From IMG/VR virus record IMGVR_UViG_3300021142_000006: DNA of 64,000 bases. One strand, given 5' to 3'. The notes under the pieces were generated by a model. That model ran no database searches and was not told the DNA's origin. It was given only the letters and a program-made list of their open reading frames with translations. Source of the stretch: a virus. Lineage: Duplodnaviria > Heunggongvirae > Uroviricota > Caudoviricetes. A program made the translations under genes and the position numbers. Shown piece after piece: positions 5,990 to 56,403 of the stretch (positions within the stretch are counted from its first letter, which is position 1; every line of letters begins with the position of its first letter).

Positions 5990-5999
5990 GTTAAATGTT

Positions 6000-6224
6000 T
6001 TATTTAGATTTGGTTAGATTTAATTTATCGCCAACCATGAATTTGCCGCAGGTGTCACTTATTTTTATATCTGTAACGGAATAAGAGCCACTGATGTAAT
6101 AGTTACACATATTGTTTTTATATACACCATTTATTGATGATACATACATGTCACCAGGTTGATATACATCAATACAAGAGGATAATAGTAGTAACAGTAA
6201 AATTGGGATAAATAGATTTTTCAT
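6000..6224 (-). CDS. small lipoprotein
   Basis: Signal peptide with an LLSSC lipobox. Confidence 0.5.
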   Translation of the reverse strand: MKNLFIPILLLLLLSSCIDVYQPGDMYVSSINGVYKNNMCNYYISGSYSVTDIKISDTCGKFMVGDKLNLTKSK

Positions 6225-6279
6225 AAAATTGATTTAGATTACAAAGATAAGATGCATATTTGATATCACCAAATTTATT

Positions 6280-6942
6280 TTACATATTAAATAATGTTTC
6301 AATATATTGTATTGTTGGGTAGTAATTACCTTTTCCGTTGTATTTTTCATCAACGGCGGTTTTAAATTGTTGGAGTGTTCCTCTGAAACAGCCAGCTGAT
6401 ATCATTTTATCTGAAAATGTAATGGTTATTGTCCTATTTGTGTTACCCAAAGAGGATATTGTCATATAATCTGATGTTTTCTCAACTTTAGCTTCACCAC
6501 ATATTACAACCATACCAGAAACTAAAGCGTTACCAAATACCTGAGCATTACCTAATACCTGAGCATTACCAGATACCTCAGATTTACCATATACGTGAGC
6601 ATTACCAGATACCCAAGCATTATCAAATACCTGAGCATTACCAGATACGTGAGCATTACCAGATACCCAAGCATTATCAAATACCTGAGCATTACCAGAT
6701 ACGTGAGCATTACCATATACCTGAGCATTACCTAATACCCAAGCATTACCAGATACATAAGCATTACCATATACGTGAGCATTACCAGATACCCAAGCAT
6801 CATCCAATAAGTTACTCACTTTCTCAATAAAACCACCTTTTGTTCCAGCTTTTCCCCATATGCAATCTTCTGTTAATTCAATACGGTAAAGTGTTTTGAA
6901 ATTGAATTGTATTTTTTCATCCGTTAATTTATATGGTGTCAT
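6280..6942 (-). CDS. hexapeptide-repeat (beta-helix type) protein
   Basis: About 17 tandem GNA[HQW]V[SYF] hexapeptide repeats. The underlying DNA has near-perfect 18-bp and 57-bp tandem repeats at about 6530-6800. Confidence 0.6.
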   Translation of the reverse strand: MTPYKLTDEKIQFNFKTLYRIELTEDCIWGKAGTKGGFIEKVSNLLDDAWVSGNAHVYGNAYVSGNAWVLGNAQVYGNAHVSGNAQVFDNAWVSGNAHVSGNAQVFDNAWVSGNAHVYGKSEVSGNAQVLGNAQVFGNALVSGMVVICGEAKVEKTSDYMTISSLGNTNRTITITFSDKMISAGCFRGTLQQFKTAVDEKYNGKGNYYPTIQYIETLFNM

Positions 6943-19351: not shown

Positions 19352-19611
19352 TATTTTAATAAGTTTTTGACTCCTTCAACAATTTGATTGAAATGTTGCA
19401 AATGATCATGGTTCATATACCAAATGAGCATGATGATTGATAATGCCCATAAGACATTACCTGGGGTTACATATTTTTTCATTAATCAAAAAATTTTTTA
19501 AGGTAACTAAAAAAACCCCATATGAATACGCATGTAACAGCTGCAACACAAATAACAACTGTACAAGCCACAGCTGGGTGTAAATGGCTCAATGATTCTA
19601 TTTCGTTCATA

Positions 19612-19914
19612 TTAATATTTTTTTGACAAGTTTTCAATATCATTTATATCATCATTGCTTAATTGGTAGTAAGCTCTTGATAACCTCATTAGTGCCTGAT
19701 TGAAATAGGAATACCCTGGGGTATCATTACCATTTACTCTACTGAAAAAATGAATTGTATTATCATTTTCAGATTTATATTGTCTTAATACATCCATGAT
19801 ATCTTCATCATTCATATTATCAATTAAGACTTTAAGAAGTTCTTCTTTATCGCTACGGCTACAATTATATACAATATCATCCGCATCAATATCAACATCT
19901 ATACTTATACTCAT
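19612..19914 (-). CDS. hypothetical protein
   Basis: 100-aa ORF. Confidence 0.45.
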   Translation of the reverse strand: MSISIDVDIDADDIVYNCSRSDKEELLKVLIDNMNDEDIMDVLRQYKSENDNTIHFFSRVNGNDTPGYSYFNQALMRLSRAYYQLSNDDINDIENLSKKY

Positions 19915-22965: not shown

Positions 22966-23718
22966 TTATAAAATTTTAACTTCTCGTTCTTCTTTATTTA
23001 CCTCAATAACAATTGGTTTGTTAACAAAATTATGACCATCATCAAGTATGCAAGCATTTACATACGTTGTGTTTTCATCATAATCAACATTGCGACCAGG
23101 GTGAATGTGACCACACATATGAACCAATGGTTTGATTTCTTTAACCCTATATCTCAATTGTTCACAACCAAGATATTCGTTTTGATCAGGTAAATAATCC
23201 AACTTATAAGATACTGGTGTATGAGTCATTATGATATCAGTATCAAGTGGTATTTGTTTCCATACCTCATCAATTTCATCACCTCTGTACTTATTAAAAC
23301 CCCAGCGATCACCATGAAACCACGGAGATACTGGAGAACCCCATATCTTTAATCCATTGATTGTTATATCACTGTTTTCAAGATAATGGATATTACCTGG
23401 CAAATTGTTTATCATTTGTTTTAACCAATATGGCTTAATCTTGGGCAATTCACCATTAACATCATCAATTTGGTAATCACCGAACTTTGGGTCAAATGTT
23501 TTATCATGGTTGCCGCATATGAAGACAATACCATATGTATATCTATCAACAATGCTTTCAAACCATTTAAATATGTCCTCAACTTCTCCCTTTTTACCAA
23601 GGTTGGTTAAATCACCACAATGACATAACAAATCACCATGTGGCAATAAATCTCCATATGCTTTGCTTGTAAGGTATTTATGTTTATTGTGTGTATCTGT
23701 TATGCAAACAATTTTCAT
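22966..23718 (-). CDS. calcineurin-like metallophosphoesterase
   Basis: Motifs CITDTH, GDL.....GNHD and GHIH in canonical order. Confidence 0.7.
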   Translation of the reverse strand: MKIVCITDTHNKHKYLTSKAYGDLLPHGDLLCHCGDLTNLGKKGEVEDIFKWFESIVDRYTYGIVFICGNHDKTFDPKFGDYQIDDVNGELPKIKPYWLKQMINNLPGNIHYLENSDITINGLKIWGSPVSPWFHGDRWGFNKYRGDEIDEVWKQIPLDTDIIMTHTPVSYKLDYLPDQNEYLGCEQLRYRVKEIKPLVHMCGHIHPGRNVDYDENTTYVNACILDDGHNFVNKPIVIEVNKEEREVKIL

Positions 23719-24751: not shown

Positions 24752-26017
24752 TCAAATTTTATTTCCATTTAACATGTTGAATTTTGTTAACATGGATTTA
24801 AAATTCTTTTTATTTGGTTCAAATGCAAATGGATCAGATGTTCCAAACGATATTCTAAACCACTCACTATCTTGGACACCAAATGATTTAAATGGAACCA
24901 TAGCAAAATTACACTCATTAATCAAAAATGTCATAAAATCATCAATGTTAGTGAAATATTTCTTGTATGGCATCATAATAGTTAGGTAAATACCGCCACC
25001 AGGTTGGATATAATCAAACTTACCAATGTTATCTTCATCATTGAGTATATTTATGAACTCTTGTTGCATCATGCTGAATTGTTTTACCTTTTCATCGCAG
25101 AATAAAACGTAATCATCATCATCCAGATCGATATCCTTGAGATATCTTGCAACGGCAAGTTGTTCAGGCTTTGGTGCCCAAGCGCCAATATGCGAATATA
25201 TCTGTGTGGCTTTATCGATGATATAATATGGTGCCATTATCCAACCAACCCTAACACCAGTAGCACAAAGTGATTTAGATATACCATCAGCACATATTAA
25301 ATATTCTTTGATATTTTCATTAATTAATAATGGGTGTTCAGGTGTTGAGTGTGATAGATCATTATATATTTGGTCAAAGAATATATAAACAGGTTTATAG
25401 TTTGTTTCTTCCTTTTTTCTTTTTTCATTTTCAGCTAATACCAAATCGATAATATCTTTTAATTGTTCTTTGGTATATGTTGCACCAGTTGGGTTTTGTG
25501 GCGAACATAAACAGATAAGATGAACAATAGAGATAAATTTTTTAATGTCTTTGGCCAAAAGCAAAAAGTTATTTTCTGGCTTTGTAGAAATTTCTATGCT
25601 ATCAACATCATGTAAAAACGAATAATGGTTATTGTTCCATGACGGTACGGCATATATAACAAGGTCAGAGGGACTGAGTATTGTTTTAAATATGGTATAA
25701 ATTAATGGTCTAACACCACCGCCAATTAGAAATTCATTGGCACCATACTTATAACCATGATATGATGAATAAAAATCAGATAGAGATTCCCTAAGAGATT
25801 GTATACCCTGTGATGGTGGATAATTGGTATCATCATTCTCATAATGATCAATTATCATATTTTTCAATGTAGATGGAATTGGATGATATGTTGGGTCAAA
25901 GTCACCGATGGTGTAATTGAAAATATCTTTACTGTTTGGGTTATCTTTGATCTTCTGATTCAAAGCGATTATTTCTGAGCCGATTATTTCTTCAGCAAAA
26001 TGTGATAATTTGTTCAT
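24752..26017 (-). CDS. class I/II (fold type I) PLP-dependent aminotransferase
   Basis: SPQNPTG motif and a SKS....GVRVGW block containing the candidate PLP-lysine. Length is 421 aa. Confidence 0.65.
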   Translation of the reverse strand: MNKLSHFAEEIIGSEIIALNQKIKDNPNSKDIFNYTIGDFDPTYHPIPSTLKNMIIDHYENDDTNYPPSQGIQSLRESLSDFYSSYHGYKYGANEFLIGGGVRPLIYTIFKTILSPSDLVIYAVPSWNNNHYSFLHDVDSIEISTKPENNFLLLAKDIKKFISIVHLICLCSPQNPTGATYTKEQLKDIIDLVLAENEKRKKEETNYKPVYIFFDQIYNDLSHSTPEHPLLINENIKEYLICADGISKSLCATGVRVGWIMAPYYIIDKATQIYSHIGAWAPKPEQLAVARYLKDIDLDDDDYVLFCDEKVKQFSMMQQEFINILNDEDNIGKFDYIQPGGGIYLTIMMPYKKYFTNIDDFMTFLINECNFAMVPFKSFGVQDSEWFRISFGTSDPFAFEPNKKNFKSMLTKFNMLNGNKI

Positions 26018-28278: not shown

Positions 28279-28572
28279 TTACTTCTTTTTTTTATTTTTT
28301 CCAAGTTTTTCTTCTTGTTTTTTTCTTTCAACTTCTTCTTCGTGAATGAAATTGCTTAATGGGTTATCATAAGCAGTTAAACATATCATCAATTGTGTTA
28401 TAGCTCCATTACAACTATAAAAAGCTGCCCAATAACCCTCCTCACTTATTTCCCTGGGATTGGCATTACGCATTGCATTAATTTCATTGAGACGTTTTTG
28501 TTGTTTTCTTATTTGATGCAAAAGTTGTCCCTCAATTAAGAAAGCTTTAGAATCTTTAGTGTTAGTAGTCAT
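28279..28572 (-). CDS. hypothetical protein
   Basis: 97-aa ORF. Confidence 0.4.
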   Translation of the reverse strand: MTTNTKDSKAFLIEGQLLHQIRKQQKRLNEINAMRNANPREISEEGYWAAFYSCNGAITQLMICLTAYDNPLSNFIHEEEVERKKQEEKLGKNKKKK

Positions 28573-29194
28573 AATTCAAATCAATTATAGTTTTACTTAG
28601 TTTATTTAAAGCAATCTTTTGATATTTTTTATTGAAACCAGATACATTCCTTGGGCTTGGTAATACATGAACAAAATGATTCCTTTGTGTATATAACATA
28701 TCAGAATCATCATCAATTATAATATAATTTTCAATATTAGATTTTTCCATATATTTTAATTGTTCTTCCTTTGACCAATTAATATGGTGAAAATGTAGAT
28801 GTTTTTCCAGGAATGCTTCAATTTCACACCCTCTTGGTATTGTGCTATTATAGCCAATATGGTAGGTCTTTCTACCATCAATCCATAAATGTGGTGTTGT
28901 ACCAATAACTTCCCCAACAAAACCCCTATTTTTCCACATATGTTTTATACAATTCAAATTAGCATCATAGGATTCTGTTATAAAGCTGGTAAAACGTTTT
29001 GAACTGGATATAACAATCTTAGCATCAGTCTTGCTTATAAGTTCATTAAGCAATTCAGTTGATTTAGGACAAAACATTTCACCCCATTCATCATTCAAAT
29101 CAAATCTGGCCTGTATTCTTTTGCTTTTGCTTACCTTATGATAAAAAGCTTGATGATTTAATACGCCATCGATATCCAAAAAAATCACTTTCAT
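28562..29194 (-). CDS. HAD-superfamily hydrolase
   Basis: N-terminal FLDIDGVLN matches the DxDGVL motif I. Confidence 0.55.
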   Translation of the reverse strand: MKVIFLDIDGVLNHQAFYHKVSKSKRIQARFDLNDEWGEMFCPKSTELLNELISKTDAKIVISSSKRFTSFITESYDANLNCIKHMWKNRGFVGEVIGTTPHLWIDGRKTYHIGYNSTIPRGCEIEAFLEKHLHFHHINWSKEEQLKYMEKSNIENYIIIDDDSDMLYTQRNHFVHVLPSPRNVSGFNKKYQKIALNKLSKTIIDLNYDY

Positions 29195-30075: not shown

Positions 30076-30840
30076 TTAATTAGCTTTTACTGATCCGTTT
30101 CTTTTATTTTTTAATGCCGCAAGAGCATCAGAACCAGAACTTGAACCAAGAACTTTATCGATTTCTTGTGCAGAACTCATTGTAGAGTCGCTAACTTCCG
30201 CATATGCTTCAGATGTAAGTGCTGTTTGAGATACCTTTTCTTGCATACGTTTCATTGTCTGCATTAAACCATCGGTATCAACACTTGACATTGTTTTGTT
30301 GATGGTAAGAGAAGCATCGGCGATTTGCTTTTCAGATTTAAGCATCTTAACATCAGTTTCGGTCTTGGTAATGGTATTACGTAATTCCTTGATAGTGGCA
30401 TCAAGTTTAGCCAATTTAGCTTCCTGAGTTGTGGCATTTTTGGCATAAGTTTCAGCCTGTGTTAATGCGTTTTGGTGTTCAGTTGCGGCTGTTTCTGCCA
30501 ATTTGGTTAAATTCTCAACATCAGCACCAGGTTGTTCCATTTTATCAAGCAATGCATTTGCTTTGGTTTCCCATTCATCAGCCTTTGCTCTGAATTTTGC
30601 TTCATCAGCACGAAGACCAAGAACCATAGCTTTGATTTGTGCTTCACCTTCGATACCTTGTTGCAACTTTGTGCGTAATTCACGAAGGATCTGGTCTGCC
30701 ATCTCAACTGGGTTTTCCAGTGTATCGGCAATAGTGTTGGCTTTAGCCTTAAAAATTAGAGCAAGACGTTTTCTGAAACTTACTCCGAGTATTGCAAGCA
30801 TACCACCTACAATAATTAATGCAATCATAAAATTTGACAT
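30076..30840 (-). CDS. PspA/IM30-like coiled-coil protein with N-terminal TM segment
   Basis: N-terminal hydrophobic helix followed by a long A/E/K-rich coiled coil. The ADQILRELR region resembles PspA. Confidence 0.4.
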   Translation of the reverse strand: MSNFMIALIIVGGMLAILGVSFRKRLALIFKAKANTIADTLENPVEMADQILRELRTKLQQGIEGEAQIKAMVLGLRADEAKFRAKADEWETKANALLDKMEQPGADVENLTKLAETAATEHQNALTQAETYAKNATTQEAKLAKLDATIKELRNTITKTETDVKMLKSEKQIADASLTINKTMSSVDTDGLMQTMKRMQEKVSQTALTSEAYAEVSDSTMSSAQEIDKVLGSSSGSDALAALKNKRNGSVKAN

Positions 30841-31025
30841 AGTTTTTATTTTTTTTTACAAATGTACGTATTATTTCAGTATAAACAAAGTTTTATTCAA
30901 TTATTTTTTAAAATCGTAAATAACATCAATAAAATCATCCAAATCCAAACGTAACTTACATCAGTAGTTTTTAATCAATAGGGGGACTTCGAAATCCCTT
31001 GAACAGGTACTCCTATTGAAGTTTG

Positions 31026-31147
31026 TAGTCAGGGATGGATTCGAACCATCATAACTCAGTAAAAACTGCTGCGTTGTATAATGTTGTTGGTAAGTTATTC
31101 TTGCAGTAACCCAACATACATGCGTCTACCAATTCCGCCACCTGACT
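31026..31147 (-). ncRNA. tRNA-like element (Leu-type D arm, canonical T arm, about 36-nt insertion where the anticodon arm should be)
   Basis: Minus strand reads AGTCAGG-TG-GCGGAATTGGTAGACGC ... GATGGTTCGAATCCATC-CCTGACT-A. It has a 7-bp acceptor, a D arm identical to bacterial tRNA-Leu and a T arm with GGTTCGAATCC. Between them are 70 nt forming an extended hairpin (TGTATGTTGG/CCAAC..ATACA) rather than a standard 5-bp/7-nt anticodon arm. No CCA is encoded. Confidence 0.4.
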
Positions 31148-31561
31148 ATTTCACTTTTTTAAAGAGAAGTGTAACTCTGGGTCGTAAGTGCCACCACCAG
31201 TTTTAAAGATTAAACTGGAACTATTATAACTCACCGAGGGGTTCCCAATTCTCCACCCTATACTTTTCAGTCCAATACTCCCTATATGTATTGTTAAGGA
31301 TTCACTGACTACTGAACGTGCAATTTATTGATCGTATCTTCTACACTATGTGAGTTAATATCTTTAAACTATTCGCCAAAAAAGAAACTTCAATTGCGCC
31401 TGATAAAACTTTTTTGACTTGGTACTTACTCTATTATAGGCTCCCCAGTCCTGTCTAATAATTTGCTGATACTTCATTTCCGATTACTCTGTTTAGAAAG
31501 TGGAACCGTTAAGGTAGCCATCGCAACTCGGACAATTACTCAACATGTTTTTTATAATAAT

Positions 31562-32434
31562 TTATTTTGCTGAGATATTTAACATAGTACCACCAGAACC
31601 TGTCATAACATTAGGTAGTTTACCATCCCAGGTGCTTGCTTTGATATACTCAACATATGTTGGTGTTACAACTTGTTGTTTCAAACGAATAGCAGCGGCT
31701 TCACCTGCGGCTGTAATTACCTTGGAAGCTGAATCACCACGAGCATCAGCAATCTTTTTATTTGCTTCAGCTACAGACATTTGCAATTGCATAACCGATG
31801 TTTCAGCATCTTGTTTAGCTTTAACCTTTGCATTGATTGATGCCGCTAAGTTTGCATCTGTTGGGCGAGGTTGTGATGTAATATTGAAACCATCCACAAT
31901 GAAACCATCGTTTGCAAGTTTTTTGCTAATGTTGTTGGCTACATCATGTTCATAGGCTGGTAAATTAGTAAGTATGCTATCAACTGTTATATGACCTGAT
32001 ACATCTTGCATACAACCACGAACAATGTTCTTAATATACTGATTTGTAATTGATTCAAGATCATCATTTCTCCATTTAAGATAAATGTGAGATGCTTTAG
32101 TTGCATCAACATGATAGTTTAAACCAACATCAACCCTGAAACCAGCACCACCTTGACAAGCAATTGTAATAGCTTGAAGACCTTCTTGACCTTCATTTTT
32201 TGCATCAGTCCATACCTCATGTTGCATGGTTGTTGGTATAGTTATAATTTGGCTTTGGCCAGGGAAAAAGAACTGCCAACCAGTTAATAATGGCAAACTA
32301 TCCAAACCACGATAGTTACCTGAATTGCTAATCTTAAAACCAGCCTCTGTTGGGCTAATTCTTGTACAAGATTCCATTGAAATACTTGTGCTCAATATAA
32401 GGAGTAGAGCTACTCCGTAAGTTAACTTTTTCAT
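31562..32434 (-). CDS. SPFH/band-7 (stomatin/HflC-like) lipoprotein
   Basis: Signal peptide with an ESC lipobox, followed by an SPFH core and an A/K/Q-rich coiled-coil tail. Confidence 0.7.
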   Translation of the reverse strand: MKKLTYGVALLLILSTSISMESCTRISPTEAGFKISNSGNYRGLDSLPLLTGWQFFFPGQSQIITIPTTMQHEVWTDAKNEGQEGLQAITIACQGGAGFRVDVGLNYHVDATKASHIYLKWRNDDLESITNQYIKNIVRGCMQDVSGHITVDSILTNLPAYEHDVANNISKKLANDGFIVDGFNITSQPRPTDANLAASINAKVKAKQDAETSVMQLQMSVAEANKKIADARGDSASKVITAAGEAAAIRLKQQVVTPTYVEYIKASTWDGKLPNVMTGSGGTMLNISAK

Positions 32435-35168: not shown

Positions 35169-35555
35169 TTATTTTAAATTACTAAAAATTGCTTTTATAA
35201 ACATTCCTGTATTACCTGCAAGATCATAATTATTAAGATCTTTTGGTTTAACCCATTGATATGATAAATGTTCATCTGATATGGTAACCTCAGGTTTTTT
35301 ATCAAGAACCTTAAAATAAACACTAACGATATTATGTTTTTTTGCTGAGATATAATCACCAGCATACTTTGGTGCTTTTATTGTAATACCAGTTTCCTCA
35401 AATGTTTCTCTAATGGCACCATCAATTTCAGTTTCACCACTTTCAATTTTTCCACCAGGCAAACACCAACCTGTAATAGTCCTATCTTTTGGTGGCCTTT
35501 CTAATAATAAAATCTCATCATCAACTATGATGCAACAAACTGCCGATCTTTTCAT
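35169..35555 (-). CDS. NUDIX hydrolase
   Basis: Nudix box GGKIESGETEIDGAIRETFEETGI. Confidence 0.8.
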   Translation of the reverse strand: MKRSAVCCIIVDDEILLLERPPKDRTITGWCLPGGKIESGETEIDGAIRETFEETGITIKAPKYAGDYISAKKHNIVSVYFKVLDKKPEVTISDEHLSYQWVKPKDLNNYDLAGNTGMFIKAIFSNLK

Positions 35556-35560
35556 TTATT

Positions 35561-36304
35561 TTATTTTTTATTATATATTATTTCGAACCATCTATCCATC
35601 AAGAATCTTGTGTATATTTGAGGATCGAGACCATAAGAACCTAATGACCAACCATCATTTAATTCAATTAAAGAGGTATATATGAATGGATCATTATCAT
35701 CCATAATACCTAAGTCTATGGTATATGATATTGGCGCATTTTCATAATCGTTAATCAGCTTAGGTAAATCAGTTAGATAAGGGAATTTTGTACAATCGCC
35801 AGTATAATTCTTGATACCAACAATCTGACCCTTATTAATGAAAACACGATATTCAGAACTAAAATTTACAACTTCAGATGTAATTATTTTTGTATCATCA
35901 GGATATGAAAAAAGAGTATCATAACTACTTTCTTTCCTTATCACCCCACTTGGGAATAGTTTTAAATCAATCGATTTTATGAATAATGGTACTTTCCTTT
36001 CGCTTTTTAATTCACCCAATGTGGTAAATTTTATTTCACGATCACAATACTTTATTAAACATTCAGGTATATGCAAAGGTTTAGGAACCTCAATACCGCA
36101 TTTATTAAAATACGTTTTGGTATCTTCAATTGAACCAATAAATATTGGTTGTTCTGATGGTTGTTTATTTAAGTTAATGCTGGGTACTTCCATTGGATCA
36201 TCAACAAATACAACTTCAATACCTCTTTGACAAAATCCAAGATATGCTGAATGTATATAATCATCAGCTATCTGGTCACCAGCTTTATATAGATACGCTT
36301 TCAT
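35561..36304 (-). CDS. hypothetical protein (possible ATP-grasp fold)
   Basis: 247 aa. The suggestion comes from a weak EYRVFINKGQIVG-type block. Confidence 0.35.
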   Translation of the reverse strand: MKAYLYKAGDQIADDYIHSAYLGFCQRGIEVVFVDDPMEVPSINLNKQPSEQPIFIGSIEDTKTYFNKCGIEVPKPLHIPECLIKYCDREIKFTTLGELKSERKVPLFIKSIDLKLFPSGVIRKESSYDTLFSYPDDTKIITSEVVNFSSEYRVFINKGQIVGIKNYTGDCTKFPYLTDLPKLINDYENAPISYTIDLGIMDDNDPFIYTSLIELNDGWSLGSYGLDPQIYTRFLMDRWFEIIYNKK

Positions 36305-36305
36305 A

Positions 36306-36659
36306 TTACAGTGGTGGTAAATCCATTAATTCACAAACAATATCATCATCGAGTTGCTTTCCATATAATATTTCGATATTGGTGATAATCTCTGCTTTTG
36401 TGAAAACAAATTTGTTATCAATAAATTCAAGAACAACCTCCATTGGTTTTTGCCAATCGCCACCACCAAAGAAATGTATTTTATTTTCGGATATTTCAAC
36501 AAATCCGTAATTTTCTAAATCAAGTTCTTCAAGATGTCCATCTTGTTCTTGTTGTGGAAAACCAGTAAGCGTTTGGATTATGTATAATATATCTTCTGGT
36601 TGATAAACGATAAACCCATTATGAGGTGCAACCGCTAATAATCTGTCAACTATTTTCAT
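36306..36659 (-). CDS. hypothetical protein
   Basis: 117-aa ORF, overlapping junctions. Confidence 0.45.
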   Translation of the reverse strand: MKIVDRLLAVAPHNGFIVYQPEDILYIIQTLTGFPQQEQDGHLEELDLENYGFVEISENKIHFFGGGDWQKPMEVVLEFIDNKFVFTKAEIITNIEILYGKQLDDDIVCELMDLPPL

Positions 36660-37195
36660 TTATTCAATTTTTTAAATTCTTCGATTACAAAATTAAGAAT
36701 TTCTTCTGAATATTCCAACTCTCCAGGTATAGTTTTATGAAATCCGCCATAATTTTTTACCATAACGTCAAATATTTCGTTATCAAGTTGAATAGCTTCA
36801 TCCAAAGTTTGATTTCTTCCCTTTGGATCATAATGTATGCCCCTTAAAAGGTTAATGTTAAGGTTATTTCTCTTTGAGAATTCCTCATGCACATAATACT
36901 TAAATAAGTCAGTAGTATCATCTTTACCATAGATTACGCTATTGATAAGTGGCGAATCACTAACGATAATTTCTACTTGATTTTCCAAACGCCAAATACG
37001 ATGTTGTTGTTTGGCAAAGATATAATTTTGATTAGCTAAAACATGATGTGATTTTTGCCAAGTCATATCTTTGGCATACTCACCAGTAAAATCTACAGAA
37101 TATCCAAGATTTTTAATATCAGAGGTTAATCTTAAACCCATTTTACTTTTACCTGCGCCAGGCCCTCCAAAAAAATTGACAATTAATGTCTTCAT
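36656..37195 (-). CDS. P-loop NTPase / nucleotide kinase-like protein
   Basis: N-terminal FFGGPGAGKS Walker A motif. Confidence 0.5.
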   Translation of the reverse strand: MKTLIVNFFGGPGAGKSKMGLRLTSDIKNLGYSVDFTGEYAKDMTWQKSHHVLANQNYIFAKQQHRIWRLENQVEIIVSDSPLINSVIYGKDDTTDLFKYYVHEEFSKRNNLNINLLRGIHYDPKGRNQTLDEAIQLDNEIFDVMVKNYGGFHKTIPGELEYSEEILNFVIEEFKKLNK

Positions 37196-37770
37196 CGTTT
37201 AATATACTTTTTTAATTTTATTCTCGCTTCGCTTAGATGCCATTTAGAGGTATTAACACATATATCTAATCGCTCGGCTATATCTTTATGTGAATACCCA
37301 TTGAAAAACATCATAAATACAATTAATTCTTTATCTGACAAAACACTGTGAATAGTATTAATCAATGCGTCATAATTTAATTTTGAATCACATTCATTAT
37401 CTATCTTGGGTTTAAAAGTTATTTCACGCCCATTATCTTCGTCTTCAAGAGAATAATCAGAAAATTGAACTGTGTTATCATAAAATTTACTATTAGATTG
37501 TCTGAAATCATATATAGTATTTTTTAAAATGCGTATCATAAAACCTTCAAAAGAACCTTTATAGCTATACAAATGTATTTTCATAAAGATTTTGTTGAAA
37601 GCTATATTTATAATTTCATCAGCATAATCATAAAATTCTGATTTTTTTGCAATATATGATACAAATAAGATATTGTATCTATTATACAAAGCTTTTTGAG
37701 CTTTTAAATCATTTTTTTTACATAATACTATCAGTTCTTCCAAACTTGTTTCATTCTGAAATGTAATCAT
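37192..37770 (-). CDS. sigma-70 family (ECF-like) RNA polymerase sigma factor
   Basis: Region 2-like N-terminal half and a region 4 HTH (YSHKDIAERLDICVNTSKWHLSEARIKLKK). Confidence 0.6.
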   Translation of the reverse strand: MITFQNETSLEELIVLCKKNDLKAQKALYNRYNILFVSYIAKKSEFYDYADEIINIAFNKIFMKIHLYSYKGSFEGFMIRILKNTIYDFRQSNSKFYDNTVQFSDYSLEDEDNGREITFKPKIDNECDSKLNYDALINTIHSVLSDKELIVFMMFFNGYSHKDIAERLDICVNTSKWHLSEARIKLKKYIKR

Positions 37771-38414
37771 GGTATATAGAGTATGGTTGGTGAGTTTTTA
37801 TTAACATCAATACCAGGAAATTTATCACCAAATAATTTCAGGTTAAATGGATTTGTTATGATATGCGTACCATGCTTAGTAGGTATCTCAGCAATTATCG
37901 ATCTCCATTTAGAGGAAACACCAGGATTTTTGTTATTCATTTCATTATGTTCTTTATTAATGAAATGAATAATGGCATTATATTTATCACTCATATCAGG
38001 AATAACCTCCTTGGTAACAGGATCAATCAAATCAATATCAACAATCCACCTTTTGTTTTCTTCAGAGTGATGCGAACCACAGGCCATGGAATAAGCATTT
38101 TTAACCTGAACATATTGTTGATTGATGATATAATCCGTAATAATCTTCATTGTGTATAATGCAATCTTTTCTGTATCTAATCTGTTAAGATTGATATAAG
38201 CACGAGCATTCTTATCTTTACAATTATTTATGATACGATCTTGTAATTTCAAAAGATCGTCTGGTTTGTAAAGATAGTAGTTATCAACAACCTTTACACC
38301 AGTTTCCATCTCACGATTATCCTTCCTTCTTTTGAGCACTTGTATCAGGTACATGGTGTTAGGTATATTGAAATCTAACAATGAATTTATTATTTCGAAA
38401 TTATTGATTGACAT
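37767..38414 (-). CDS. hypothetical protein
   Basis: 215-aa ORF. Confidence 0.5.
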   Translation of the reverse strand: MSINNFEIINSLLDFNIPNTMYLIQVLKRRKDNREMETGVKVVDNYYLYKPDDLLKLQDRIINNCKDKNARAYINLNRLDTEKIALYTMKIITDYIINQQYVQVKNAYSMACGSHHSEENKRWIVDIDLIDPVTKEVIPDMSDKYNAIIHFINKEHNEMNNKNPGVSSKWRSIIAEIPTKHGTHIITNPFNLKLFGDKFPGIDVNKNSPTILYIP

Positions 38415-38907
38415 GTTCTAATTTTGTTGCTAATGCAAAGTTACTTAATTCTTTGATACCAGTAACCTCCATTATGATTAAATCTTTGATTTCTTGTGGA
38501 AAAATAATTTCCTGATTGATATCCTCAAGCTCGACTTCAAGTATTGTTAAGTTTGTACCATCAATTTCATCGAACTCAAAATGAAAACCATTTGCAAAAT
38601 GAACATATCTTTGTTTATAAAGGCCTTTAAAAACTTTATTGCTTAATTCTTCGAATTTTAATTGATCGATATCCTCATGCATTTCAACGTATTCACCAAT
38701 TCCTTTCTGTATTTTATGCAGATATTCATATGATTCATGGACATTATTTGGCCAATCCGTTAGATCAATTTTTTGTCGAACTCTCTTAACTAAATCACCA
38801 TCATGTAAATAATATTGACTAATACCATAAATTTTATCCCATTGTACTGGAAATGATGGTAATTTCTTCATAAGAAATCTACGCTCTATCTCTTTAACCT
38901 CTTTCAT
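38401..38907 (-). CDS. CYTH-domain (triphosphate tunnel metalloenzyme) protein
   Basis: N-terminal EIERRFLMKKLP matches the CYTH ExExK start, with multiple downstream acidic/basic strand motifs. Confidence 0.45.
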   Translation of the reverse strand: MKEVKEIERRFLMKKLPSFPVQWDKIYGISQYYLHDGDLVKRVRQKIDLTDWPNNVHESYEYLHKIQKGIGEYVEMHEDIDQLKFEELSNKVFKGLYKQRYVHFANGFHFEFDEIDGTNLTILEVELEDINQEIIFPQEIKDLIIMEVTGIKELSNFALATKLEHVNQ

Positions 38908-39916
38908 ATGTGTTTCTGAATATTTGAATTAATTGTGGACTTATACTGAAACGCTTTTCGTTAATTTCCAAACTTTTATTAAAATCACCATCTTTTGTTC
39001 TTTCAATAGCCGCTTTCCAATCACAATACATTTCAACAATATCTTGCAATGTCATATCACTTACTGGGCTATTTAATTCTCGATATTCATCAATATTCCA
39101 TGATTTAAATGTTAGATCTAAATGTGTGTTTGTTGGATCGTCAGATGTTATACATCTCCAAATACCAGCCGAAGAAGCATTTAAATACCCACGAGAAATT
39201 AATTCCTTCTCCATTTTCTCAGTACCAAATGTAATAAAATCTAATTCATTACATTGAACAACATATTTTACATTTGGCGTGGCTAAACCAGTATCATAGG
39301 CATGTTGTAAATTTTCTGATGGTGTTAACCATTCCAGGTTTTCAATGTAATTTTCAAGCTTTCTGCCATTTTTATGATTAACTTGATATCTATCATTTGG
39401 TGGTGATGGTAGAAAAGCATTAGCAACCAATGAATGTATGAAAAAGTTTTTACCAATATTATTAGTTTGTAATCTAATTCTCGCATAACCTTTTGGTGTT
39501 ACATGTGCTTTCATTATCATTTCCTTACCAATAAAATCACCTTGTGATTCTCTATGGATTATTGTTGATAATCGCTTAACCCTACCACGTGATGATATTT
39601 GATATATACCAACATAACCAGAAATATCCATCCACAATTCATTAAACTCCACAAATTGTGGGTGATGAGAGTTATTAGCATAGTGGTGGTCTAATGCCAC
39701 TTCTAATTCTTTAAGACTGGCTTTATATTCATCTGAACCATATGTCATATTTGACAGTCTTGGAGTTAACTCATCGAATAATTCCTTTTCTGGTGAATGT
39801 AACTTAGATTCATCATGAATATTAGCCCTTACTAATAATTCTTTTGAAAAATTGTTTAAATTTTGTGATACTTTGCGAATATGTTCGAGTGTATCAGCTT
39901 TGCTATCGTATGCCAT
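38894..39916 (-). CDS. HNH homing endonuclease (NUMOD4 + HNH_3 modules) with flanking domains
   Basis: WMDISGYVGIYQISSRGRVKRL matches NUMOD4. QVNHKNGRKLENYIENLEWLTPSEN matches HNH_3. Confidence 0.7.
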   Translation of the reverse strand: MAYDSKADTLEHIRKVSQNLNNFSKELLVRANIHDESKLHSPEKELFDELTPRLSNMTYGSDEYKASLKELEVALDHHYANNSHHPQFVEFNELWMDISGYVGIYQISSRGRVKRLSTIIHRESQGDFIGKEMIMKAHVTPKGYARIRLQTNNIGKNFFIHSLVANAFLPSPPNDRYQVNHKNGRKLENYIENLEWLTPSENLQHAYDTGLATPNVKYVVQCNELDFITFGTEKMEKELISRGYLNASSAGIWRCITSDDPTNTHLDLTFKSWNIDEYRELNSPVSDMTLQDIVEMYCDWKAAIERTKDGDFNKSLEINEKRFSISPQLIQIFRNTYERG

Positions 39917-43511: not shown

Positions 43512-43931
43512 TTAATAATTTCTTTCAAGATCACGTTTTATATCTCTCTCTTTAATCGCCTCTTTCTTATTATAATTCTTCTTACCCTTACACATCGCAA
43601 TAACCATCTTAAATAGGCCATTATCGTTCCTAAATACCTTTAATGGTATAATTGTAAGATTGGCATCTAATTCACGCTTAAACTTCCTTAATTCACTTTT
43701 ATTCAACAATAACTTCTTATCTCTCTTTGGATCATGAGAATAAGCCGTTTTTACTTCATTGATATTAAAGTTTTTAACATATAACTCATTACCATCGAAA
43801 TAGCAATAGCCATCGACCAAAGATGCTTTGCCATCTTTTAATTGTTTGATTTCAGAACTTTGCAATACGATACCTGCTGTTTCTGTAAACAGAAATTCGT
43901 AATCAAATTTAGCTTTTCTATTTTCTATCAT
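43512..43931 (-). CDS. smpB: SsrA-binding protein SmpB
   Basis: Near-colinear match to bacterial SmpB: NRKAKFDYEFLFTETAGIVLQSSEIKQLKDGKASLVDGY, DPKRDKKLLLNKSELRKF and CKGKKNYNKKEAIKERD. Confidence 0.85.
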   Translation of the reverse strand: MIENRKAKFDYEFLFTETAGIVLQSSEIKQLKDGKASLVDGYCYFDGNELYVKNFNINEVKTAYSHDPKRDKKLLLNKSELRKFKRELDANLTIIPLKVFRNDNGLFKMVIAMCKGKKNYNKKEAIKERDIKRDLERNY

Positions 43932-48591: not shown

Positions 48592-48969
48592 TTATATATG
48601 TAAATATTGTGCTGTTAAAAATAACTGTAAATAATGTAGACATTGATCTATACCAATGACTACGAATGCCCAATGATAATTTTTTGATGCGAATAATGGA
48701 CTGGTTATTCTACTGGTAACGAAATCCGTTAAACCATGTGCAAAAAAGGTAATTGTAAATACAAATAAAACCGTTGGTGCAAATGATAATTTAAATACAT
48801 ACCACCAGAAACCTGCTGTAATAAGAGCATAGGTTAACACATGAAATGTTAATGCATCAAACCTTTTGCTCTTATTTTCAGCTTGCCATGAAGTCTGACA
48901 AAAAAAGTCAGCAAACCAATGTATAAAAATTATCAATAATATATTAATAATTATCTGGTTGGTTAACAT
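48592..48969 (-). CDS. membrane protein (4 TM)
   Basis: 125-aa hydrophobic ORF. Confidence 0.45.
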   Translation of the reverse strand: MLTNQIIINILLIIFIHWFADFFCQTSWQAENKSKRFDALTFHVLTYALITAGFWWYVFKLSFAPTVLFVFTITFFAHGLTDFVTSRITSPLFASKNYHWAFVVIGIDQCLHYLQLFLTAQYLHI

Positions 48970-50549
48970 ATTTCTTCAAGTTTTTTACGAATCTCGGTTA
49001 AAGTCGTTTGGTTATAGAATTTACCATCTTCGTAAATGGTTTGTAGAATTCCAGCGGCTTCCATTTCTGGAGTACATTGTGTATTTACAATATATTCACC
49101 ATCATAATCTTTAGTAACACAAACCCTACCTTTAAGTGATTTTTTGGTGCTCTTACCAGAAGCATCCCTATCAGTTACTGGTTCTTTGTAGATGTCATAT
49201 GATTGACGAATTTGGAATACGCTTTCGTCAGGATGTGAAGTTGCATCTTGCAATACTTCAAACCAAGCGCCTTTAGCGGCAAAACCTAAAGTATCACGAG
49301 TATTATATTGGTATGTGAATGAACCAACACCAAGTACAATATTAGTAGAAGCAAAACCTTTAGCGGCTAACCTTTCATAGATTTTAATCTGACGATCCAA
49401 TGTGATTGAATCACCGTAAATGGCACCAATGTGTGGGTCAAGAACTTTGTAACCTTGTTCGTTAACTGTACCACCGAAGATTTCCCAAAGTAATTCGATT
49501 ACACCTTTTTCTTCACTTGTCCAAATTTCATTTTTGTTTTCCGATAAATCTCGGTCACTTTGTAAAAATGAACCACAGATAATATCTACTGGATCACCTG
49601 AGTCAGGACGAATAACCAACTTACCATCACGAGCCATAATAGCTTCTTTGTTTGCTGGTAAGTATTCGGTAATCAACTCCCACAAATCAAATGTATCTGA
49701 CACAATGGAAAGAATACCTTTAGGGAATATCTGCAACCAATCGGCAATCATTTGTTGTTCACCAACTGTAAAAATCTTAGTACAACTAACTGAATGTTCG
49801 CTTGCGTTTACTGAATTGATAAAAACTTCATTTTCAGGTTCATCATAAAAATAACGAGCGCCTGGGATGCAAATAATTGTATCAGAACCTCTAAATGAAG
49901 TAGCATGTCCTAAACCACTTGATAACATATCCCAAGGAGATAAACCACGAGCAGAGAAATCATGAGCAAGGAAAGGAATTAACCATGCGTTAGCTGGATC
50001 TGTTTTCATAACCCAATTAACTAAATTCCTGCGATATTGTAAGGCAATAGTTGCTGATGTTGATGGTTTCCAAGCCAATGATGAAATGATTGTTTCCAAA
50101 TATAAAGTTAACCATGCAAAACCATCAATTGTATTGATGAATGTCATGTGTGGTATATTAGGTAATGTTTCAATACCTTCTGGTAATGATTTGATTCGAA
50201 TTGGTAAATAACCAACATCATGAAGAGCTTCGAAGTGTGAAGCATCATAATCCATTCCAAGATACATTGACATGTCTTTACCAAATTTAATAGCGATATC
50301 TTTTGGTTGGCTAAAGAAATGTTCTGTGAACTCGTCATGTAGCCAACGAACAAGTAATTGTTGACCAAATGATACAATTTTTTTGATACCACCTGGAGCA
50401 TATTTAACGCTACGTGGAATCCATGTGCCGTACAATCTTGTTGTACCTGGGGCTAACATTGCTTTGTGCGCTGTTTTATAGCCATCTACATAATATAAAC
50501 TACAAGGTTTAAACATATTTATTTTTTGTTTTAGAATGTAAAGATACAA
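48963..50549 (-). CDS. nadV: nicotinamide phosphoribosyltransferase (NAMPT/NadV)
   Basis: 528 aa. N-terminal YKTAHK..L region plus conserved GSDT and IRPDSGDP blocks typical of NAMPT. Confidence 0.85.
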   Translation of the reverse strand: MYLYILKQKINMFKPCSLYYVDGYKTAHKAMLAPGTTRLYGTWIPRSVKYAPGGIKKIVSFGQQLLVRWLHDEFTEHFFSQPKDIAIKFGKDMSMYLGMDYDASHFEALHDVGYLPIRIKSLPEGIETLPNIPHMTFINTIDGFAWLTLYLETIISSLAWKPSTSATIALQYRRNLVNWVMKTDPANAWLIPFLAHDFSARGLSPWDMLSSGLGHATSFRGSDTIICIPGARYFYDEPENEVFINSVNASEHSVSCTKIFTVGEQQMIADWLQIFPKGILSIVSDTFDLWELITEYLPANKEAIMARDGKLVIRPDSGDPVDIICGSFLQSDRDLSENKNEIWTSEEKGVIELLWEIFGGTVNEQGYKVLDPHIGAIYGDSITLDRQIKIYERLAAKGFASTNIVLGVGSFTYQYNTRDTLGFAAKGAWFEVLQDATSHPDESVFQIRQSYDIYKEPVTDRDASGKSTKKSLKGRVCVTKDYDGEYIVNTQCTPEMEAAGILQTIYEDGKFYNQTTLTEIRKKLEEIC

Positions 50550-55062: not shown

Positions 55063-56403
55063 TTAATTTATGACTTCAGATTGTGCTTCCTCTTCGTCAA
55101 TAAACCCAGAATCCTTAATAATTCCTTCTAACACTTTGAAGTTGAAGTTCTTATGTTTGAAGATCCTAACAGCAAGGCCTGATTCAAGTCTGATACATGA
55201 ACCTTCTGACCAGTGTGTTGAGTCAGTTGGGTCGACACCATCTGAAACTTGGTTAACATATTCAATGAATTTGTCATTAAAATCACGGTCATCAGTGATG
55301 TTATGTCTTAATTTAAATTCATTTACCGTAAAACGGTCAAGTTCTGGTGAGTGTTTAACACCGATTTCAGAACAACGTCTTTTAACGTCATCCCATGAGT
55401 AGTCAACCATTTTACCATCTTCATTTGTCATTGTCATACGGTAAACAAATACGTCTGATTGACCGTCAGCACAACCATACTTGAAAATCATGTGTTTATT
55501 ATCACCAGCATTTGAATACAACTTGGTGAAGTTTTTGTCACCAATTTTTGTTGTATCCACCATACCCATAATTGGTCTGCCAAGTGACTCATATCCAACA
55601 ATTTCAAAATATACCGTTTCACCTTTTCTCAGGTTGTCTTTAAATAGGTTGAATGCTTTATCACGAATTGTTGGATCATGGAATTGTGTTCCTGAGCTTT
55701 CCTCAATAACAACCCTTCTTGTTCCATTTAGAAATGACCAATCCTTTTCTTTGATTTTGGCACCAAAAAACTTTGCAATCTTTTCGATTGTTGTTAACTT
55801 TCTGTCAATCAACACGTGACCAACCCTTCCAGATGTTCCATGTTGCTTAGATGTGATGATAATTAAATCGTTTGGTTCGATTTTATCAATGTTAACAATC
55901 ATATGTTTGGTATCGATATGTTCAAAGAACATTTCAGATGTTTTTGCTTTGCGAACTTTCTTTGGTTGATTCTCCTTAGCCGCTTTAACAGTTGCTGGAT
56001 TAACATATTTATTACAGATAGGTACACCTTTCCAAGTGTCGAATTCGTAACCTTCCACATCAAGACCAGTTATTTCAATGAATGCAAAATAGTGTAATGG
56101 AACCCAAAACCCATCTGAAATTTCACCACGAAACTTTTGAGCCCTAACCCTACGGTTATCATCAAACATACCTGGCTTAGCTTCAGTATTTTTGTTCTTA
56201 GTATTATCCCTATAAAGATTATTGGCTTTACAGAATTCGTCAGATAATTGTCCGTCACACGGAAAATACACACCCCATTCAGATTCCTTAGAATCCAATC
56301 CAATAACCACTTGGTTACCATGGCAAGTTGCCAACTGCACTTTATCCGCATTTGAATGTGGCCTTACATCTTTTAATCTTGTTACAATTGCTGTGTATGA
56401 CAT
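55063..56403 (-). CDS. ATP-dependent RNA ligase (Rnl2-like nucleotidyltransferase with N-terminal OB-like domain)
   Basis: Motif I KQHGTSG (KxHG[TS]), with downstream motif III/IV-like blocks (ETVYFEIVGYE, DVFVYRM). Confidence 0.55.
   Translation of the reverse strand: MSYTAIVTRLKDVRPHSNADKVQLATCHGNQVVIGLDSKESEWGVYFPCDGQLSDEFCKANNLYRDNTKNKNTEAKPGMFDDNRRVRAQKFRGEISDGFWVPLHYFAFIEITGLDVEGYEFDTWKGVPICNKYVNPATVKAAKENQPKKVRKAKTSEMFFEHIDTKHMIVNIDKIEPNDLIIITSKQHGTSGRVGHVLIDRKLTTIEKIAKFFGAKIKEKDWSFLNGTRRVVIEESSGTQFHDPTIRDKAFNLFKDNLRKGETVYFEIVGYESLGRPIMGMVDTTKIGDKNFTKLYSNAGDNKHMIFKYGCADGQSDVFVYRMTMTNEDGKMVDYSWDDVKRRCSEIGVKHSPELDRFTVNEFKLRHNITDDRDFNDKFIEYVNQVSDGVDPTDSTHWSEGSCIRLESGLAVRIFKHKNFNFKVLEGIIKDSGFIDEEEAQSEVIN

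Follow-up and report, generated by a model that had tools for sequence, protein, structure and literature searches.

A tRNA-Leu-like element with a 71-nt module in place of its anticodon and variable arms, and the phage family of elements to which it belongs

The stretch analysed here comprises 64,000 nucleotides (nt) of the tailed-phage record IMGVR_UViG_3300021142_000006 (Caudoviricetes, IMG/VR) and is henceforth called the window; its subject is a 122-nt element on the minus strand (31147-31026), in which the body of a leucine transfer RNA (tRNA-Leu), henceforth called the chassis, carries a 71-nt module. The element is located in a block of 721 nt (30841-31561) that separates the stop codon of an SPFH/Band-7 gene from the start codon of a PspA/IM30 gene. 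In a first-pass annotation, made from the letters alone, this block had been described as free of open reading frames (ORFs), as the only sizeable non-coding block of the window, and as GC-enriched. The first description held, the longest ORF having at most 41 amino acids (aa). After greedy cover of the window with ORFs of at least 50 aa, the block was indeed the largest gap, but one further gap of at least 250 nt was left (1794-2163). The GC content of the block (0.343) does exceed that of the window (0.308); however, the two flanking genes already reach 0.37-0.39, and the enrichment is therefore confined to the 122-nt element (0.418) and a hairpin downstream of it (0.444), so that for the block it is marginal. 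The neighbouring genes and the parts of the element, read from the sequence and, for the module, from a minimum free energy (MFE) fold, are the following:

31562-32434, minus strand: SPFH/Band-7 gene, upstream neighbour of the block
30076-30840, minus strand: PspA/IM30 gene, downstream neighbour of the block
31147-31026, minus strand: whole tRNA-Leu-like element, 122 nt, constant chassis plus a 71-nt module replacing the anticodon and variable arms
31141-31147, minus strand: 5' strand of the acceptor stem, AGUCAGG, pairing with 31027-31033 (7/7 Watson-Crick)
31122-31140, minus strand: U8, G9 and the D arm GCGG-AAUUGGUAGA-CGC with A14, A15 and G18G19, the same sequence as in annotated phage tRNA-Leu genes
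31051-31121, minus strand: central module, 71 nt
31034-31050, minus strand: T arm GAUGG-UUCGAAU-CCAUC with the T-stem pairing of the family, preceded by U48 (31051)
31026-31033, minus strand: 3' strand of the acceptor, CCUGACU, paired with the 5' strand, and discriminator A73 (31026)

Read in order, the element is AGUCAGG-UG-GCGG-AAUUGGUAGA-CGC, 71 nt, GAUGG-UUCGAAU-CCAUC-CCUGACU-A, and the genomic trailer after A73 is CAA, i.e., CCA is not encoded. The Rfam tRNA model (RF00005) matched it at 40.0 bits (gathering score 29; E-value 8.9e-07 with 1 kb searched), the alignment having large insertions at the anticodon and variable positions; ARAGORN at default settings and an Rfam search of the whole window (fast filters, gathering threshold) did not report it. 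The D arm (GGCGGAATTGGTAGACGC) with its flanks is 96-100% identical over 21-25 nt to annotated tRNA-Leu genes of cultured phages, and the D-arm 20-mer occurs once in the window, with 0 occurrences expected by chance. When the window was scanned generically for expanded tRNA-like elements (60-200 nt), 31147-31026 was the sole match. Since 71 nt lie between the D and T arms, where ordinary tRNA-Leu genes of related loci have 31-36 nt, about 35-40 nt are carried in addition. The element thus exists with the anatomy first described, namely 122 nt on the minus strand with a tRNA-Leu D arm, a T arm and a 7-bp acceptor, and some 70 nt where the anticodon arm belongs; the covariance check that had been proposed returned the tRNA model, and in its flanks the element resembles the ordinary tRNA genes of phages (see below). 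It has a tRNA-Leu D arm, a T arm, a closing acceptor and a non-anticodon middle of at least 45 nt, by which the family treated next is defined, and it also exceeds the tRNA gathering threshold with a 7-bp acceptor, a G18G19 D arm and a T loop of the UUCRANY type. Its acceptor and D arm are the commonest form of the family.

Related elements were retrieved by scanning IMG/VR for a tRNA-Leu D arm followed by 60-90 nt and GGTTCGAATCC, which yielded at least 119 viral stretches. The acceptor closed with 6-7 of 7 base pairs in 107 of the 121 matches listed (88%, compared with about 1.3% expected by chance), and among these matches many have the exact AGTCAGG/CCTGACT acceptor and A73 of the window element around a wholly different middle. 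Unless otherwise stated, family statistics refer to 133 distinct expanded elements identified in the collected loci with a relaxed finder. The AGTCAGG/CCTGACT acceptor is common to 72 of these; altogether 45 acceptor variants occur, every one of them paired. The T stem occurs in 14 variants, with pairs 49-65 to 52-62 standard in 130-133 members; the variants include ACAGG/CCTGT, GCAGG/CCTGC, ACAAG/CTTGT and GATGG/CCATC, the last being that of the window. Several nucleotides were not demanded by the search and are nevertheless kept, i.e., U8G9 (133/133), U48 (131/133) and A73 (111/133). G-U pairs are frequent and tolerated on the tRNA-sense strand only; because each would read as an A-C mismatch on the opposite strand, selection acts on an RNA of tRNA sense. 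An alignment of 27 sequences of one subfamily (subfamily A, see below) showed compensatory changes at four of the seven acceptor pairs and at one T-stem pair, and covariation as strong as that observed did not arise in any of 500 column shuffles. Both the existence of the family and the covariation of its helices on the tRNA-sense strand are shown by these data. Many elements are located inside or beside tRNA arrays, and as many as four expanded elements (middles of 49, 74, 107 and 109 nt) were counted on one contig, together with an ordinary tRNA-Leu(UAA) with a different acceptor.

The 5' half of the chassis (AGTCAGGTGGCGGAA-N1-3-GGTAGACGC) was searched against 185,579 species-representative genomes and was present in 11, all of them short contigs of metagenome-assembled genomes (MAGs), five of which were labelled Flavobacterium, Sediminibacterium or Chitinophagaceae. 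Apart from these 11 contigs, the chassis is absent from cellular genomes and phage-specific, and for this reason the window element is not a copy of a host tRNA. A 3' tRNA copy serving as a phage attachment site (attP), as had been suggested, was rejected on the same grounds and because both tRNA halves are present.

Some individual members deserve mention. The cultured Bacteroides phage BS-TP2 carries an unannotated member (L135 1495-1602, corresponding to about 19550-19657 of PQ571275.1) with the acceptor GGTATCG/CGATACC and a 57-nt module, located between DUF2303/YfdQ and NinG genes; the same element is also found on at least 12 IMG/VR contigs. In members of the gut/Bacteroides type (L015, L034, L040, L041, L051, L053, L109 and others), a conserved hairpin (GACAGCCCGG-AAAG-ACGGGCA) precedes the element by 3-6 nt and may be part of a precursor or a transcription signal. 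In L001, the closest relative of the window phage (83% aa identity in SPFH), a diverged chassis element (GGTCAGGTGGTGGAAACGGCAGACAC...ACAGTTTCGAACCCTGGACTGACCA) is located at about 6366-6490, just 5' of an ordinary tRNA-Leu(UAA), and 1302-1379 holds a 78-nt gene of the GGTCAGG type called as tRNA-Asp(atc) by ARAGORN. The metagenome contigs L145, L186, L193, L201, L219 and L220 end inside or beside a chassis element, which fits assembly breaks at a repeat with several copies per genome.

The ability of the element to decode was assessed with several tools. The window module contains no 5-bp stem with a 7-nt loop bearing U33 and a leucine anticodon (NAG/NAA). Standard tRNA-Leu calls were obtained for none of 98 AGTCAGG-type elements, as compared with all nine short-middle genes of the tRNA-Leu type with other acceptors in the same loci, and no family member carries a standard leucine anticodon arm. 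In intron mode, ARAGORN forced the window element into a tRNA-Val(aac) with a 27-nt insert at position 35/36 on an otherwise leucine body; across the 133 members the same mode produced 38 different "anticodons" and insert positions from 32 to 40, and left 43 without a parse. No group I intron was matched in the window by the Rfam model (Intron_gpI), which does detect one in a relative. The proposal of an intron-containing or fragmented tRNA found no support in these results, and an intron-containing tRNA was rejected for its isotype mismatch, the scatter of anticodons and insert positions, and the missing group I core. The intron in the relative (L006 7140-7367; 98 bits) is a group I catalytic intron in the neighbourhood of the tRNA region. 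The hypothesis of a transfer-messenger RNA (tmRNA) gene fared no better: neither ARAGORN in tmRNA mode nor Rfam found one in the window, whereas the same tools find a tmRNA in the relative L005 (446 nt at 5996-6441, just downstream of its SPFH gene), and tmRNA was rejected for the element because pair 3-70 is U-A instead of G-U, the D stem is complete, and no model matched. Rfam models for tmRNA, Y-RNA-like RNAs and viral tRNA-like RNAs gave no match at the element. The suggestion of a tRNA-derived regulatory RNA stands in its first part, the derivation from a tRNA; a regulatory role would be putative.

The middles of the family span 45-110 nt between the D and T arms. When the 133 middles were clustered (blastn, E-value 1e-4), 75 clusters resulted, 43 of them on AGTCAGG-type chassis; modules are unrelated between types and conserved within a type. 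A pattern based on the stretch of the window middle that resembles subfamily A retrieved this subfamily from 41 viral contigs and 48 metagenome contigs, most of them of freshwater-lake origin, with a mean identity of 91%, loops included; the subfamily had no match among cultured phages. Judging from these sequences, the modules are under selection. The window module shares with subfamily A the motif GGTTA-N4-5-AARRATAAC and equal spacings (23 nt separate the D arm and ATAAC, and 37 nt separate ATAAC and AGTTAT), and a looser pattern aimed at intermediates between the two returned one new true member and three chance matches. Rfam searches of the family middles matched the tRNA model alone and none of the known ribozymes, riboswitches or small RNAs. 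The following candidate helices were obtained for the window module from its sequence and the MFE fold:

31116-31111 with 31090-31085, minus strand: candidate helix S1, TGTTGG/CCAACA
31098-31093 with 31056-31051, minus strand: candidate helix S2, ATAACT/AGTTAT
31068-31057, minus strand: candidate hairpin CAGU-UUUU-ACUG
31120-31116 with 31079-31075, minus strand: rival nested helix TGTAT/ATACA

In subfamily A, S1 takes the form AAGGTTA/TAACCTT, i.e., the position is kept while the bases differ, with one compensatory pair within the subfamily, and S2 (ATAAC/GTTAT) can form in both the window module and subfamily A. Together, S1 and S2 would make an H-type pseudoknot. The module also holds a short reading frame, AUG UAU GUU GGG UUA CUG CAA GAA UAA.

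Cleavage of the 5' end by RNase P with a preference for U at position -1, and repair of the CCA end, are established parts of tRNA maturation. The nucleotides flanking 139 elements were counted and compared with those of 168 ordinary tRNAs of the same loci. Position -1 is T in 115 elements (83%), position 74 is C in 127 (91%), and position 75 is C in 4 (3%); the ordinary tRNAs have the same signature of U-1, C74 and non-C75. Because the flanks match, the same maturation route is suggested for the element, i.e., RNase P at the 5' end followed by 3' trimming and CCA addition. For leucine identity in Escherichia coli, A73, the A15-U48 Levitt pair, G18G19 and the contacts between D and T loops are required, and the anticodon and the long variable arm are dispensable for the leucyl-tRNA synthetase (LeuRS), variants without both arms still being charged (PMC9976931). 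Compared with these rules, the window element has the whole identity set. As the chassis keeps this set while both missing arms are dispensable, the RNA is, by analogy with E. coli, probably leucylated yet unable to decode.

Taken together, we favour, with a probability of roughly 0.55, the reading that 31147-31026 encodes a non-decoding mimic of tRNA-Leu that is processed, likely to be charged with leucine, and a member of a modular family of phage RNAs. Under this reading, a near-invariant chassis (acceptor, U8, D arm with A14/A15/G18G19, U48, T arm and A73) would be kept while the anticodon and variable arms would have been replaced by a lineage-specific structured module (45-110 nt; 71 nt in the window). 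The element would have a promoter of its own or be co-transcribed with the minus-strand genes around it, and would then be cut by RNase P at U-1, trimmed at the 3' end and completed by the CCA-adding enzyme; LeuRS would then leucylate it and no codon would be read. The chassis would thereby act as a stable, processable and possibly charged handle presenting the variable module, which could serve as a binding partner or decoy for a host or phage factor in a conflict over tRNAs.

A number of observations weigh against this reading. The window module is a singleton at the clustering threshold, and its own conservation cannot therefore be demonstrated; its likeness to subfamily A is only partial. 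As to folding energy, nothing stands out (z-score -1.23), and the covariation is insufficient to separate the pseudoknot from a nested fold of the module. No partner is indicated, given that no conserved neighbour protein and no antisense target in the window were found: the neighbours of the elements include no universal partner gene, the largest cluster being a 75-aa protein in 26 loci, and the best antisense match of the module to the rest of the window was 12 nt, within the range of the shuffled controls. The identity rules for LeuRS come from E. coli and Aquifex; the host of the window phage is possibly a member of Bacteroidota, and some LeuRS enzymes use the variable arm. The element has A1-U72, which is unusual for a bacterial elongator tRNA, and the discriminator is other than A in 16% of the members.

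Among the rival explanations, a cis-acting signal for processing or punctuation is unlikely, though it would account for part of the data: RNase P and RNase Z would cut the read-through transcript from SPFH to PspA, or set the 5' end of the downstream messenger RNA (mRNA), with the RNA as a by-product and the module without function. This would suit an element placed between two genes of the same strand and flanked like a tRNA, in a family of which many members end 15-30 nt ahead of an ATG. For such a purpose, however, an ordinary tRNA or the chassis alone would suffice, the next start codon in the window is 185 nt away, and neither the diversity and conservation of the modules (91% in subfamily A) nor the retention of the LeuRS identity nucleotides U48 and A73 would be explained. 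That the element is instead a functionless tRNA-Leu pseudogene, damaged by an insertion and now decaying, is improbable. None of the 51 chassis positions is damaged, the acceptor and D arm have the commonest form of the family, and the T stem carries the compensated variant GATGG/CCATC, whereas decay would strike chassis and module equally; since the AGTCAGG chassis never occurs with a normal anticodon arm (98 elements), a functional parent is not visible either. What speaks for decay is that the window module has no close homologue, that default tRNA finders reject the element, and that relatives of the window phage have tRNA arrays at the position of the block while the window has no ordinary tRNA.

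ARAGORN with the -i option gives a cloverleaf with an insert of 27 nt, and genes for an RNA ligase and a repair phosphatase are present in the phage; a functional tRNA from which a short intervening sequence is removed by an unknown nuclease and the phage ligase, restoring a decoding tRNA, can be construed from this. We regard it as quite improbable, as a valine anticodon (aac) would sit on a leucine body, the insertion site 35/36 is non-canonical, anticodons and insert positions scatter or fail to parse across the family as given above, no group I signal is present and 27-35 nt are too short for a group I intron, and subfamily A has no excisable anticodon stem-loop. A miniature analogue of tmRNA would be charged with leucine, bound by SmpB and admitted to stalled ribosomes, where it would use the short frame of the module. 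The frame does end in UAA, a gene for SmpB lies 12 kb away in a window without tmRNA, and one relative has its tmRNA just downstream of the SPFH gene; these points are outweighed by the lack of any tmRNA model or ARAGORN match, the U-A pair at 3-70, the intact D stem where SmpB would bind, the missing conservation of frame and start in subfamily A (a 1-nt indel; ATA or ATC at the "start" in some), and the absence of SmpB genes from the roughly 5 kb around the elements in 237 loci, which leave the idea very remote. Least credible is a purely DNA-level role as attP or another tRNA-derived recombination site. tRNA-Leu genes are frequent integration sites of phages, and an unrelated match, RHEph01, is a normal tRNA-Leu beside an integrase gene; in the window, though, both tRNA halves are present, the chassis is not found in cellular genomes outside the MAG contigs, covariation and strand-specific G-U pairs argue for selection on RNA, and several copies with different middles occur on one genome.

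As a broader and distinctly tentative proposal, to which we give little weight at present, phages would keep a modular platform consisting of a leucine-chargeable, non-decoding tRNA body onto which dozens of differing structured modules are grafted, often with several per genome. Such RNAs could be decoys or sponges for host defences acting on the acceptor end or elbow of (aminoacyl-)tRNAs, or they could provide leucine-charged adaptors for non-ribosomal reactions or ribosome rescue (SmpB is encoded in the window and tmRNA is not). If true, this would amount to a new functional class of phage non-coding RNA and not to a tRNA oddity.

Compared with tRNA-Leu of bacteria and phages (type II), the family has the same acceptor, D arm, T arm, U8, A14, A15-U48, G18G19 and A73, shares U-1 and the lack of an encoded CCA with the ordinary tRNAs of the same phages, and is often placed in tRNA arrays; it differs in having neither an anticodon stem-loop nor a regular variable arm, and 45-110 nt of unrelated, type-specific sequence instead. 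In the tRNA scaffold reportedly engineered by Ponchon and Dardel in 2007 for recombinant RNA, the cargo is said to replace the anticodon arm while the tRNA body gives processing and stability; the phage system, in contrast, is natural and built on a tRNA-Leu body. The minimalist E. coli LeuRS substrates of Larkin et al. 2002, as far as they are summarised in PMC9976931, needed A73 and the tertiary core of D and T loops, and relative to that summary the family keeps exactly what was needed, without the dispensable anticodon and variable arms. The substrates summarised there are laboratory deletions, whereas the phage elements, whose charging is putative, replace the arms with a structured module.

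By location, the nearest precedent is provided by species 1 and 2 of phage T4 (rnaC and rnaD), stable non-tRNA RNAs of 119-139 nt inside the phage tRNA cluster. Like the family, rnaC ends in a canonical T arm and an acceptor-like 3' strand; unlike it, rnaC and rnaD have no tRNA-Leu D arm, and they show no sequence similarity to the window element. Against models of the tRNA family, rnaC reached only 17.5 bits at best (E-value 0.59). We treat the relation as an analogy of genomic location. In rnaC (L222; NC_000866, 1409-1547, minus strand), the T arm and the start of the 3' acceptor strand, CCGGGTTCGAATCCCGGCGTT, are identical to those of L087 and L097, which are members with a full tRNA-Leu D arm; the identity may be due to chance or to a distant relationship. 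Partial tRNA mimics are also grafted onto other modules in tmRNA, in YrlA and other Y-RNA-like RNAs and in viral 3' tRNA-like structures, some of which are aminoacylated. Of these, tmRNA differs by its G3-U70, the absence of a D stem, the tag ORF and pseudoknots, YrlA ends in a Ro-binding stem and not in an acceptor stem, and the viral structures are located at the 3' ends of RNA genomes.

tRNA mimicry as such is well known, but a natural family with one tRNA-Leu body, dozens of swappable modules and several copies per genome was not found in the literature. No description of the family turned up in full-text literature and no model in Rfam 15, which is not proof that it is undescribed. The family spans hundreds of phage contigs, and its genes are missed by standard annotation (ARAGORN leaves them blank, and the copy in the cultured Bacteroides phage lacks an annotation), and many uncounted RNA genes are for this reason likely to reside in phage tRNA regions. 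Because the conserved part is a minimal LeuRS substrate, the possible occurrence of charged, non-decoding tRNAs during infection is directly testable. The family possibly bears on the role of the small stable RNAs of the T4 tRNA cluster, a question now 50 years old, and it offers natural designs for tRNA-scaffolded RNA expression.

Outside the element, the block is poorly conserved. Its 721 nt had no DNA match among cultured phages, the PspA gene led to no syntenic relatives among viral contigs, and relatives recovered through SPFH share no DNA with the block. The flanking features are given below:

31148-31171, minus strand: 5' leader hairpin CACUU-CUCUUUAAAA-AAGUG, followed by AAAU and U at -1; about 15 nt directly upstream of the element can be aligned to other loci
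31414-31476, minus strand: sole conserved block of the upstream 414 nt, 80% identical over 64 nt to L090 4543-4604
30975-31019, minus strand: downstream hairpin ("minihelix") with an 8-bp outer stem TCAATAGG/CCTATTGA, a 13-nt 5' bulge and an inner 6-bp stem GGGAUU-UCGA-AGUCCC

The upstream 414 nt (31148-31561) had been called structured-looking, which the controls did not bear out: the fold has a z-score of -1.29, 21 of 200 shuffles fold at least as well, and Rfam returned nothing with an E-value below 0.2. With flanks that are neither conserved nor significantly structured, a larger non-coding RNA, another of the original candidates, found no support. The counterpart of 31414-31476 in L090 is located about 45 nt upstream of a degenerate chassis element, and a promoter scan identified a sigma-70-like TAGACA-18 nt-TAGAGT at 31457-31428 within the conserved block, which may for this reason be a promoter. 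A small ORF in the upstream block was rejected, as a stop codon interrupts the 37-aa ORF in L090, the only homologue. Leaders fold at -5 kcal/mol or below in 32% of the family compared with 14% of shuffles; any role of the leader hairpin is putative.

For the downstream hairpin, the reported T-arm-like minihelix does exist as a sequence with an 8-bp stem; it is, however, located at 30975-31019 instead of 30977-31026, its fold is unexceptional (z-score -1.44), the tRNA model gave no match there up to an E-value of 10, and no homologue was found among 237 related loci. As TTCGAA is a palindrome, a resemblance to a T loop arises on either strand. The hairpin is terminator-like by a simple scan, and 30975-31019 is probably a terminator-like or 3'-end hairpin; hairpins or terminators often follow other family members as well.

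Further genes of the window that relate to RNA repair and ribosome rescue are the following:

43512-43931, minus strand: SmpB homologue, 35% identity to E. coli SmpB (E-value 3e-19)
55063-56403, minus strand: RNA ligase homologue with the PHA02142 OB fold, up to 46% identity to annotated phage RNA ligases
28562-29194, minus strand: HAD_SAK_2 "Swiss Army Knife RNA repair" phosphatase domain, by domain match
22966-23718, minus strand: calcineurin-like phosphoesterase, forming an RNA-repair-type gene set with the two genes above

The first of these confirms the earlier statement that the phage encodes SmpB. Since RNA ligase, repair phosphatase and SmpB are typical of conflicts over tRNA and translation, a role of the element as decoy or scaffold is plausible, albeit speculative. 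Homing endonucleases are common near family elements, as is typical of tRNA regions; in the window, a DUF5662 protein with an inserted NUMOD4/HNH_3 homing-endonuclease module is encoded at 38894-39916 (minus strand). Auxiliary genes at 35169-38414, 48963-50549 and 24752-26017 encode NUDIX, R2K ATP-grasp, a sigma-70/ECF-like factor, NAPRTase and a class I/II aminotransferase, and suggest a large phage with many host-takeover functions. The second gap of the window, 1794-2163 (370 nt, GC content 0.254), adjoins a gene for a TnpB-like protein (Cas12f1-like TNB domain and OrfB_IS605) at 2538-3899 on the minus strand; it lies a few hundred nt past the 3' end of that gene, on the side where an omega-RNA or the end of an insertion sequence would be expected.

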